Source: Escherichia coli (GTDB lineage Bacteria; Pseudomonadota; Gammaproteobacteria; Enterobacterales; Enterobacteriaceae). Taken from it: 64,000 bases of DNA. Of this stretch, positions 11,356 to 52,948 are shown piece by piece. Under the pieces are notes generated by a model. That model was not told where the DNA came from and did no database searches. It saw only the letters and a list, made by a program, of their open reading frames with translations. The stretch lies in assembly GCF_022846255.1 (NCBI RefSeq), contig NZ_AP025682.1; one strand, written 5' to 3'. A program made the position numbers and the translations under genes. How positions within the stretch are numbered: the first letter of the stretch is position 1; the number at the start of each line of letters is the position of its first letter.

Positions 11356-11528
11356 AAAGTTCTTTTGCGCTGCATTGCTGGCGTAAATGTCAGCAATGCA
11401 GCATTTCCTCACGATTCTTCTTTGACGATCGCACTTTTTGCTCGTTATGATGGCGTCGCTAGCCTCAGTAAATCCTTACTCCGGCGGTGCGCAACCCGTG
11501 CGCGTGAACCACTATCTGAATGCTCATC

Positions 11529-31854: not shown

Positions 31855-31939
31855 ATAAAAAAACCTGCTGGTGAGGCAGGTTCTTTTATTTACTATTTTC
31901 AGGCCTAACACCACAGCCTGTGCAACATCGTGTTCCAAC
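31855..31939 (-). ncRNA. Candidate antitoxin small RNA (OrzO-like), about 85 nt
   Basis: Minus-strand sigma70-like promoter (-35 TTGCAA at 31969-31974, 17-nt spacer, -10 TATAAT as complement of 31946-31951); intrinsic terminator (7-bp stem 31862-31868/31876-31882 followed by a U-run on the minus strand); 5' segment complementary to 32086-32105 of the toxin 5' UTR. Confidence 0.5.
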
Positions 31940-49340: not shown

Positions 49341-49367
49341 CCCCCTCATGATGAGGGGGCTTTTTTT
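49341..49367 (+). terminator. Intrinsic terminator after yehA
   Basis: ccccctcat-g-atgaggggg palindrome followed by c and seven T. Confidence 0.7.
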
Positions 49368-49704
49368 AGCGATGATAAAAAATCTCACCGTCGTAGGCTT
49401 TAATGATTTTACCGTCGGTGTCGCTGATCAACACGTACGCGCCACCCATATAGGTCCAGTGCGTCCCGGCATCAGGCGCGGGCAGGTTACGTAACTGCCA
49501 CTGCTTAATGTTGTACTCATCGGTACGGTACATTTCTGGTACGGTGTCACCTGGTTTGAAATGCTTAAAGTCAGCAATGAAACTGCTTAACTCATACTTA
49601 GAAATTCCCGAGGTATTGGTCGAACCCGCGGTGGCTGGTGCGGCCCAGGCGGCACTGGTAACCAGCAAAAGCGCACCCAGCAACATCTTATTTTTAATGG
49701 TCAT
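49366..49704 (-). CDS. rcnB: Periplasmic nickel/cobalt homeostasis protein RcnB (112 aa)
   Basis: ORF track 49366..49884; start at MTIKNKMLLGALLLVTSAAWA (signal peptide). Confidence 0.85.
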   Translation of the reverse strand: MTIKNKMLLGALLLVTSAAWAAPATAGSTNTSGISKYELSSFIADFKHFKPGDTVPEMYRTDEYNIKQWQLRNLPAPDAGTHWTYMGGAYVLISDTDGKIIKAYDGEIFYHR

Positions 49705-49922
49705 AAACTCTCCACTTTGGGGATCTGTAATATCAGTCGCATATCTTTCCTGCCATACAATATAACTGACAAGCGATATTTTGTTAGTGATCCCATGATT
49801 TCGTAAAAAGTGTAAATGAAAGGATGCCCTAAAAGCATCCTTAGCGAGCAGAGAGTCAGCGGAAATAGCTGATTTAAGAATCATCCTGGGCTGAAGATAA
49901 CATGCAAGCCTAAAGGATTGAG

Positions 49923-50747
49923 TTATCGCATTATGCCCATGAAGCCATGTACGCCCATATACACACCAACTAAGCCAATCAACAGACTGGAAAAATAGGG
50001 AGCGCGTTTAGCGAGAGTGTTAAATCCGCTCCAGCGTTTTGCGACCTGCTGAACGCTGATTGCTGCGCCAACGCCTACGGTGACAAGCGTTAACGCCAGG
50101 CCGAGGCTGAAACTGACGACCAGTGTTGCGCCCAGTGTCAGGGCTTTCAACTGAATGCAAATCAACAGCACGGTAATTGCTGCCGGGCAGGGGATAAGGC
50201 CACCGGTTAAGCCAAATAGCAAAATTTGCCAGTTGGTGACCTCTCTACCATCAAAGCGTCGTTTAATGTCATTGGCATGGGCTCGTGCATGGGCATCCTG
50301 ATACTCGCCATGTTCGTGATGGTGATGATGTCCATGGTCGTGGTGATCTTCGTGATCGTGGTGATGATGCTCATGATCATGCTCGTGCATATTCTCCAGC
50401 CAGTTGCGTTCGCCGCGCCAGGTACGCCAGAACATCCAGAACGCGGTGCTAATAATGATCACTGCGGAAATCAACTGGAGCCACGGTTCTGCTGATTGAG
50501 CAGTAAAGCGTTTGCTGATCACCATCCCGCCAAAGGCAATTAACCAGACCACTGCGGTATGCGAAATAGTTGCTGCCAGTCCGAGCATCACCGCCTGTTT
50601 AATGGTGCCTTTGATGGCGATGATAAACGCCGCCATCATCGCTTTTGAGTGCCCCGGTTCCAGGCCATGAAGCGCACCAAGTAAGATGGCGCTGGGGATG
50701 AAGAACCAGGCGTTTCCTTGCTGAAGAAGTGTTGTAAATTCGGTCAT
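49923..50747 (-). CDS. rcnA: Nickel/cobalt efflux protein RcnA (274 aa) with His-rich loop
   Basis: ORF track 49923..50747; His/Asp/Glu-rich loop HEHDHEHHHHDHEDHHDHGHHHHHEHGE. Confidence 0.92.
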   Translation of the reverse strand: MTEFTTLLQQGNAWFFIPSAILLGALHGLEPGHSKAMMAAFIIAIKGTIKQAVMLGLAATISHTAVVWLIAFGGMVISKRFTAQSAEPWLQLISAVIIISTAFWMFWRTWRGERNWLENMHEHDHEHHHHDHEDHHDHGHHHHHEHGEYQDAHARAHANDIKRRFDGREVTNWQILLFGLTGGLIPCPAAITVLLICIQLKALTLGATLVVSFSLGLALTLVTVGVGAAISVQQVAKRWSGFNTLAKRAPYFSSLLIGLVGVYMGVHGFMGIMR

Positions 50748-50784: not shown

Positions 50785-50819
50785 TACTCCCCCCCAGTAC
50801 CTGATACTACCCCCCAGTA
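50785..50819. promoter_or_regulatory. Tandem RcnR operator sites (TACT-G6-N-AGTA type) in the rcnA-rcnR divergent promoter region
   Basis: tactcccccccagta (50785-50799) and tactaccccccagta (50805-50819); reverse complements read TACT-G7-AGTA and TACT-G6-T-AGTA. Confidence 0.7.
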
Positions 50820-50867: not shown

Positions 50868-51140
50868 ATGTCTCATACAATCCGTGATAAACAGAAACTG
50901 AAAGCGCGTGCCAGTAAGATTCAGGGCCAGGTCGTGGCGCTCAAGAAAATGCTCGACGAGCCGCACGAATGCGCTGCAGTTTTACAACAGATTGCTGCTA
51001 TCCGTGGCGCGGTGAACGGTCTGATGCGGGAAGTGATTAAAGGTCATCTGACGGAACACATCGTTCACCAGGGGGATGAGCTAAAACGTGAAGAAGATCT
51101 GGATGTCGTTCTGAAGGTGCTGGATTCATATATCAAATAA
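50868..51140 (+). CDS. rcnR: Ni/Co-responsive repressor RcnR (CsoR/RcnR family, 90 aa)
   Basis: ORF track 50868..51140; [21 protein letters not shown]... Confidence 0.92.
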
Positions 51141-51235
51141 TTTATTAACGCGATTGTAAAACTGCCGTTTTTCCTCGTTTACAACGCGTGCGCTGGACAT
51201 TACCATCCTCCTTTGCGATTTATCATCGCAACCAA

Positions 51236-51362
51236 ACGACTCGGGGTGCCCTTCTGCGTGAAGGCTGAGAAATACCCGTATCACCTGATCTGGATAATGC
51301 CAGCGTAGGGAAGTCACGGACCACCAGGTCATTGCTTCTTCACGTTATGGCAGGAGCAAACT
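51236..51362 (+). ncRNA. TPP (THI-box) riboswitch in the thiM leader
   Basis: Conserved THI-element segments ggggtgccc...ctgagaaatacccgtatcacctgatctggataatgccagcgtaggga immediately upstream of the thiM start, with the SD caggagcaaa in the expression platform. Confidence 0.8.
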
Positions 51363-52151
51363 ATGCAAGTCGACCTGCTGAGTTCAGCGCAATCTGCGCA
51401 CGCGTTACACCTTTTTCACCAACATTCCCCTCTTGTGCACTGTATGACCAACGATGTGGTGCAAACCTTTACTGCCAATACCTTGCTGGCGCTCGGTGCA
51501 TCGCCAGCGATGGTTATCGAAACCGAAGAAGCCAGTCAGTTTGCGGCTATCGCCAGTGCGTTGCTGATTAACGTTGGCACACTGACGCAGCCACGAGCGC
51601 AAGCGATGAGTGCTGCCGTTGAGCAAGCAACACGATCACAAACGCCCTGGACGCTTGATCCGGTTGCGGTTGGTGCGCTCGATTATCGCCGCCGTTTTTG
51701 TGTGGAACTTCTGTCCCATAAGCCAACCGCCATACGTGGTAATGCTTCGGAAATCATGGCATTAGCTGGCGTTGCTAATGGTGGACGGGGAGTGGATACC
51801 ACTGATGCCGCAGCTAACGCGATACCCGCTGCACAAACACTGGCACGGGAAACTGGCGCAATCGTCGTGGTCACTGGCGAGGTGGATTATGTTACCGATG
51901 GACATCGTATCATTGGCATTCACGGTGGCGATCCGTTAATGACCAAAGTGGTAGGAACTGGCTGTGCACTATCGGCGGTTGTCGCTGCCTGTTGTGCGCT
52001 ACCAGGCGATACGCTGGAAAATATCGCATCTGCCTGTCACTGGATGAAACAAGCCGGAGAACGCGCAGTCGCCAGAAGCGAGGGGCCAGGTAGTTTTGTT
52101 CCACATTTCCTTGATGCGCTCTGGCAATTGGCGCAGGAGGTGCAGGCATGA
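51363..52151 (+). CDS. thiM: Hydroxyethylthiazole kinase
   Basis: ORF track 51363..52151; recognised as ThiM (262 aa). Confidence 0.92.
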
Positions 52152-52948
52152 AACGAATTAACGCTCTGACGATTGCCGGTACTGATCCGAGTGGTGGTGC
52201 GGGGATTCAGGCCGATCTTAAAACCTTCTCGGCACTTGGCGCTTATGGTTGCTCAGTGATTACTGCACTAGTGGCGCAAAATACCCGTGGCGTACAGTCG
52301 GTGTATCGCATTGAGCTTGATTTTGTCGCCGCCCAGCTCGATTCGGTGTTCAGCGATGTGCGAATCGACACCACTAAAATCGGTATGTTGGCGGAAACCG
52401 ATATTGTTGAAGCGGTGGCAGAACGGTTGCAACGTTATCAGATCCAAAACGTGGTACTCGACACCGTTATGCTGGCAAAAAGCGGCGACCCGCTGCTTTC
52501 ACCTTCGGCAGTTGCCACGCTACGCAGTCGATTATTGCCACAGGTTTCATTAATAACGCCAAACTTGCCCGAAGCAGCCGCCTTGCTCGACGCGCCACAC
52601 GCGCGCACCGAACAGGAAATGCTGGAACAAGGGCGATCGCTGTTGGCGATGGGCTGTGGCGCAGTGCTAATGAAAGGTGGTCATCTGGATGATGAGCAAA
52701 GCCCGGACTGGCTGTTTACCCGCGAGGGTGAACAACGGTTTACCGCACAGCGCATTATGACCAAAAACACTCACGGCACTGGTTGTACGCTCTCTGCGGC
52801 GTTGGCTGCACTGCGCCCGCGCCATACAAACTGGGCTGACACCGTACAGGAGGCAAAAAGCTGGCTTTCATCGGCGTTAGCCCAGGCCGACACGCTGGAA
52901 GTTGGTCACGGTATTGGTCCGGTTCACCACTTCCACGCCTGGTGGTGA
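52148..52948 (+). CDS. thiD: Hydroxymethylpyrimidine/phosphomethylpyrimidine kinase
   Basis: ORF track 52148..52948; ATGA overlap with thiM; recognised as ThiD (266 aa). Confidence 0.92.

Follow-up and report, generated by a model that had tools for sequence, protein, structure and literature searches.

The window (the whole 64-kb stretch of Escherichia coli DNA that was analysed) carries on its minus strand an ORF of 825 nt that the initial annotation called rcnA, and Pfam, gene order, and RefSeq all agree with this name. The NicO profile (PF03824) matched the translated ORF with an E value of 1.4e-69 and 235.1 bits (cut-off 27.7), residues 13-273 aligning to profile positions 1-285 of 287; rcnR and rcnB are found in synteny; and, among the matches listed, the RefSeq label under the match was rcnA. 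In a megablast search, the gene was found in 5365 of 5426 complete E. coli genomes, near full length in 5357 of them. The closest of the matches listed, CFT073 included, showed 99.8-99.9% nucleotide identity to the window gene, and K-12-derived laboratory strains showed 98.1%; the window allele belongs to a CFT073-like group. The coordinates of the gene, its neighbours, and the features discussed below are given in Table 1.

Table 1. Features of the rcn locus in the window, with the basis on which each was assigned.
Feature	Positions	Strand	Basis
rcnB (yohN), accessory periplasmic protein, downstream of rcnA	49366..49704	-	Pfam RcnB PF11776, E=1.7e-18
rcnA (yohM), 274 aa, NicO-family nickel/cobalt efflux permease by orthology	49923..50747	-	ORF list, Pfam, RefSeq
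TR7 reverse primer site, TGCTGAAACTGACGACCAGT	50105..50124	+	1 mismatch; primer from PMC2246123
Whole central hydrophilic loop of RcnA, residues 109-174, between third and fourth membrane helices	50226..50423	-	Hydropathy
His-rich stretch, RcnA residues 121-148, HEHDHEHHHHDHEDHHDHGHHHHHEHGE	50304..50387	-	ORF translation
TR7 forward primer site, CGCAGTGATCATTATTAGC	50448..50466	-	0 mismatches; primer from PMC2246123
Two operator-like sites, rcnA-rcnR intergenic	50785-50799, 50805-50819		TACT-C7-AGTA and TACT-A-C6-AGTA, read in sequence
rcnR, divergent Ni/Co-responsive repressor of the CsoR/RcnR type, upstream of rcnA	50868..51140	+	Pfam Trns_repr_metal PF02583, E=3.5e-21; RefSeq in related loci

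The surroundings are those of an rcn locus, with a divergent rcnR, G/C-tract operator-like sites, and a downstream rcnB. The two intergenic sites were kept in six rcnA alleles, and both fit TACT-G6-N-AGTA, which we take to be the form of the RcnR operator. In the O157:H7 strain SS17 (L008, 1159-1277), the first C7 tract reads C6, and the TACT-AGTA spacing would lose one base; either a true homopolymer indel or an error in sequencing may be the reason. For rcnB, the mechanical ORF taken from the first ATG spans 49366-49884 on the minus strand and encodes 172 aa. Because RefSeq annotates rcnB in related loci with 339 nt (112 aa), the start is probably the internal Met at 49704, which opens a signal-peptide-like N-terminus (MTIKNK...).

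A few genomes depart from this arrangement. One rcnA copy among the complete E. coli genomes is plasmid-borne, and 61 of the 5426 genomes gave no rcnA match. In strain ZF31 (NZ_CP047455.1, 1234477-1234587), 111 nt of the 3' end (query positions 715-825, in plus-strand orientation) are left beside yehA, which indicates that most of the gene was deleted. Elsewhere in the window, Rfam matches include a TPP riboswitch (RF00059, 71.2 bits) at 51232-51328 on the plus strand, just upstream of the ORFs 51363-52151 and 52148-52948, which are presumably thiM and thiD. A match to the OrzO-P antitoxin RNA (Rfam RF02083, 99.9 bits) at 31857-31932 on the minus strand suggests a type I toxin-antitoxin locus of the zor-orz type, and Rfam RF03039 (72.8 bits), the Peptidase-S11 RNA motif, was matched at 11444-11524 on the plus strand.

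The initial annotation described about 30 codons within rcnA that encode almost only His, Asp, and Glu. The peptide is exactly as quoted there, but it comprises 28 codons and includes two Gly: residues 121-148 hold 17 His, 4 Asp, 5 Glu, and 2 Gly. At a background of 2.3% His, 17 or more His among 28 residues would be expected with a probability of about 2e-21. When all six frames of the 64 kb were scanned, 39 stop-free windows of 28 residues contained at least seven His, and all of them lay at the rcnA stretch. The His-rich stretch is confirmed as real and far beyond chance. Plus-strand ORFs that cross the loop (e.g., 50226-50495, 89 aa) have no support of any kind and were dismissed as antisense artefacts of the low-complexity stretch.

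By hydropathy analysis, the stretch is part of a central loop of 66 residues with 7 Lys+Arg, 15 Asp+Glu, and 19 His. The seven basic residues predict, by the positive-inside rule, that this loop is cytoplasmic. DeepTMHMM likewise predicts a cytoplasmic RcnA loop (PMC11247825), and the same paper gives the central loop 17 His. An AlphaFold2 model of RcnA, built on 32 diverse homologues, had a mean pLDDT of 82 and a pTM of 0.73. Residues 121-151 of the model are coil, with pLDDT values of 67, 54, and 50 in blocks of ten residues, and are flanked by confident helices at residues 83-120 and 152-166. The latter helix, which follows the His run, corresponds to the motif DAHxxAHAxxIxxRF, conserved in the homologue alignment. 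The His-rich part of the loop is predicted from this model to be disordered. In a sequence search against the PDB, no solved relative of RcnA was found; the matches that were returned, to the His-rich tails of cobaltochelatases and to a bacteriocin-type signal-sequence protein, were rejected as compositional only.

The membrane motifs HxxEPGHxK, in the first half of the protein, and GxxGGxxPCP, in the second half, are invariant in the 32 diverse homologues (H27, E30, P31, G32, H33, K35, G179, G183, P186, and C187). The window RcnA has the profile match, the membrane motifs, the rcn context, and the His-rich loop by which we recognised members of the NicO family. We surveyed the family with one representative per cluster of 50% identity (n=58). 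A His-rich segment of 14-230 residues, with recurring HD, HG, HE, and HS dipeptides, was present at the loop position in 51 of the 58 full-length homologues. With the criterion used, no such segment was detected in the remaining seven representatives, two of which are fragments (168 and 181 aa). Because of these seven, the His-rich loop may not be essential for transport. In several distant RcnA/NicO homologues (P0125, P0131, P0134, P0166, and P0246), the His-rich loop is interrupted by a non-His segment of about 100 residues (IDTGHG..ELSVFE.GVPPRFRL...IPEPHEF), bordered by His runs, which suggests that a folded domain was inserted into the loop in some lineages.

At the DNA level, the stretch had been described as repeated gtgatg/atcatg units on the plus strand. 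The DNA is indeed of low complexity, but GTGATG occurs three times and ATCATG once, with no regular tandem. Tandem Repeats Finder reported imperfect arrays only, the best with a period of 18, 3.2 copies, 74% matches, and a score of 72. No perfect tandem in the window allele is longer than two CATCAC units (12 nt), and a perfect array of at least three units, as we required of a VNTR, was not found in this allele. We recoded the peptide synonymously 20,000 times using E. coli codon frequencies. Codon choice neither avoids nor favours repeats, judged by the longest tandem (12 nt, P=0.54) and the longest repeated word (11 nt, P=0.65). The window stretch is compositional low complexity and not a microsatellite; its simple look stems from the amino acid composition, which draws on CAY, GAY, and GAR codons. 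The description of the tract as prone to slippage applies more to other alleles, such as those with (GACCAC)n, than to the window allele, which has at most two perfect 6-nt units and a length that was constant in the sampled carriers.

The initial annotation also held that loop length may vary between strains and proposed a comparison of loop lengths. We made this comparison, and the length was not invariant: it differs among annotated genes, among loops of public proteins, and, in copy number of a repeat, within O157:H7. Judged from three systematic samples, about 12-15% of complete E. coli genomes have an rcnA of another length. The samples were systematic ("spread") but small, with 59 rows each. 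With the window rcnA gene (825 nt) as query, 8 of 59 rows had another length (genes of 804-870 nt); the O157-type gene (858 nt) gave 9 of 59 (798-858 nt), and the loop region of the window (164 nt) gave 4 of 59 (regions of 143-188 nt). Gene lengths ranged from 798 to 870 nt and were always a multiple of 3, full-length matches giving ten of them (798, 804, 810, 822, 825, 840, 849, 852, 858, and 870 nt). Four further lengths of the loop region likewise differ by multiples of 3. A span of 821 nt in one genome (H55) is an alignment effect, as the match begins at query base 2 and the annotated gene has 822 nt.

According to the identity bands, the loop region of the window is matched at 95% identity or more in about 4,710 of 5,365 genomes (88%). 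Of the sampled genomes, 55 reach 96.3% identity or more to this region; all of them have the window length, and no copy-number polymorphism was seen among these carriers of a window-type allele, which are a small sample. Length variants of the window type are present in the protein database as rare sequences, one longer by six residues (P0075) and one by three (P0071).

Eight variant alleles, encoding proteins of 267-289 aa, were fetched and aligned with the window allele. Every indel in this alignment of nine alleles fell within the His-rich stretch. Variable positions made up 14 of 28 in the loop versus about 10 of 246 elsewhere. Among public proteins, the best 120 cluster representatives from E. 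coli and Shigella had loops of 21-54 residues with about 45 distinct sequences, and the segments flanking the loop were constant in length, differences in gene calling aside. The changes within the loop include extra His-Glu or Asp-His dipeptides, duplications of 9 nt (CATCATCAC), and duplicated segments of 9-18 residues. The His-rich loop is the in-frame indel hot spot of rcnA.

Alleles of the O157 type contain a perfect (GACCAC)n array encoding (Asp-His)n, together with a 9-nt insertion, GACAACGAA, that encodes DNE. The aligned alleles of this type hold 6-9 GACCAC units and qualify as VNTR arrays. In two of them (L006 and L007), 1416 flanking nt are the same, and the sole difference is 9 versus 6 units. 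We counted the units in 59 genomes sampled from about 325 matches to the O157-type loop, a sample that includes four divergent non-O157 alleles, and found every copy number from 4 to 10, six being the most frequent; Sakai carries 4 units and EDL933 (genome H157) carries 6. Where the codons are uniform, as in the O157 type, the array changes fast; where they are mixed, the length was constant in every sampled carrier.

The O157-type array is an established typing marker. The repeat GACCAC and a primer pair have been published for MLVA locus TR7 of E. coli O157, which belongs to the Noller scheme (PMC2246123), and both primers map within the window rcnA, bracketing the His-rich stretch. The reported TR7 value of EDL933 is 6 (PMC3777172), in agreement with our count from the EDL933 genome, and in serial passage TR7 mutated at a rate of 1.3e-4 per generation (PMC3777172). 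TR7 of O157:H7 shares its position with the window stretch, whereas the GACCAC array, with 4-10 perfect units in O157-type alleles, is absent from the window allele. Two further assignments were dropped: TR7 and O157-37 are not the same but two separate loci in PMC3777172, and a location of the generic E. coli MLVA locus CVN014 in rcnA is not established, as PMC3407997 names no gene.

Similar markers are found in related genera. The Salmonella enterica marker STTR5, widely used in typing, is a CACGAC repeat in yohM (PMC5183578); it lies in the same loop of the orthologue, where the GACCAC hexamer, in a different register, encodes (His-Asp)n. STTR5 arrays commonly have 8-14 units in S. Typhimurium (PMC5183578) and are typically longer than those of any E. 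coli allele considered here. Salmonella rcnA has also been seen to lose 54 nt, corresponding to (HD)9, in the course of in vivo passage (PMC6760104). The rcnA of Klebsiella pneumoniae contains the repeat CATGGT, which is typed as MLVA locus 27 and occurs in 0-19 copies (PMC3948817). This too is a coding hexanucleotide VNTR; however, its unit, and hence the dipeptide, differs from Asp-His. The difference in repeat unit points to repeats having arisen independently in this gene.

E. coli RcnA (YohM) was described as a Ni/Co efflux protein by Rodrigue et al. (2005), as cited in PMC5183578 and PMC3391293. That protein is the product of the same gene, with 274 aa, the neighbours rcnR and rcnB, and a loop with 17 His, and the window protein differs from it by allelic substitutions only. 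We take the window RcnA to be a Ni(II)/Co(II) efflux permease on the strength of this likeness, the activity itself being taken from the literature on the E. coli orthologue, as cited in PMC5183578, PMC3391293, and PMC11247825. How RcnA confers resistance is not fully understood, and export has been discussed versus chelation through the loop (PMC11247825).

We consider it probable, at roughly 0.8, that the stretch encodes a disordered, cytoplasmic, His-rich loop of RcnA with a putative role in metal capture, and that its length changes are in frame and mostly near-neutral. The stretch would be the disordered His-rich part of the large cytoplasmic loop that joins the two three-helix halves of the RcnR-regulated permease. 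The clustered imidazole and carboxylate side chains would bind Ni2+ and Co2+ on the cytoplasmic side. As a site of metal capture or buffering, the loop may feed or gate the pathway through the membrane that is built around HxxEPGHxK and GxxGGxxPCP. Disordered, His-rich cytoplasmic loops also occur in metal transporters of the CDF and ZIP families, where they are proposed to be metal sensors or buffers; the likeness to the RcnA loop is a functional analogy only, as folds and families are unrelated. Changes in length would come about when replication slips or when short direct repeats recombine unequally. Because the length variation is so broad, we infer that most of these changes are near-neutral, with selection probably keeping the reading frame and removing extreme lengths.

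A different explanation is that loop length is adaptively tuned: it would set the binding capacity or affinity for Ni/Co and hence the set-point of efflux, each lineage would keep the length that fits its niche, and the repeat would supply rapid adjustability. An effect of loop length on metal affinity, raised in the initial annotation, had already been suggested as speculation (PMC3391293; PMC5183578); our literature search found no experiment on loop length versus metal handling, including in the two papers found to mention STTR5 together with nickel. The length classes are associated with lineages, the O157 type having a long (DH)n loop and the DNE insertion. In a set of 12,112 S. Typhimurium isolates, mid-range STTR5 alleles dominate, and the authors interpreted this as a sign of functional constraint (PMC5183578). 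The nickel-heavy cable bacteria all have RcnA loops of 100-123 residues with 33-53 His (PMC11247825); they share the family, loop position, and His-richness with the E. coli protein, but their expansion is fixed across the clade and not polymorphic. Against these observations, the single clonal serotype O157:H7 contains 4-10 copies, a spread that resembles mutational drift more than a set of niche-specific optima, and in about 88% of E. coli the loop varies in sequence but has a single length. On balance we find tuning unlikely.

Slightly more doubtful is a specific form in which in-frame gain or loss of repeats changes the number of Ni/Co ions held, lineages such as O157:H7 keeping a mutable array and most E. 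coli having frozen the loop at 28 residues. If this were true, the efflux threshold would shift with copy number, (Asp-His)n would be a fast-adjusting trait, and freezing would have occurred through codon mixing.

The His run could also serve mainly as a cytoplasmic metal store or chelator, giving tolerance by sequestration, with length altering capacity and not kinetics. The view that RcnA is an exporter or acts as a chelator through its His-rich loop is cited in PMC11247825. However, one membrane protein with 17 His binds only a few ions per molecule, and the conserved transmembrane motifs and the NicO membership point to transport. We regard chelation as the main role as improbable, although a role in assisting transport and one in chelation are not mutually exclusive. 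That slippage frameshifts rcnA on and off, as in a phase-variable contingency locus, can practically be dismissed: some lineages do have a repetitive, mutable region here, but the units measure 6 nt, 9 nt, or a larger multiple of 3, all ten gene lengths are multiples of 3 and belong to rcnA genes annotated as intact, no frameshifted allele was found among the nine that were translated, and phase variation is contradicted by all length changes being in frame.

As a discovery the stretch matters little: the gene, its His-rich loop, and the length polymorphism of this loop are all already known. An effect of loop length on nickel and cobalt handling is an often-repeated suggestion. Outbreaks of E. 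coli O157, Salmonella, and Klebsiella are routinely typed by the polymorphism of the rcnA loop. For annotation, the allele in the window is the common, length-stable form of this loop and not a repeat array.
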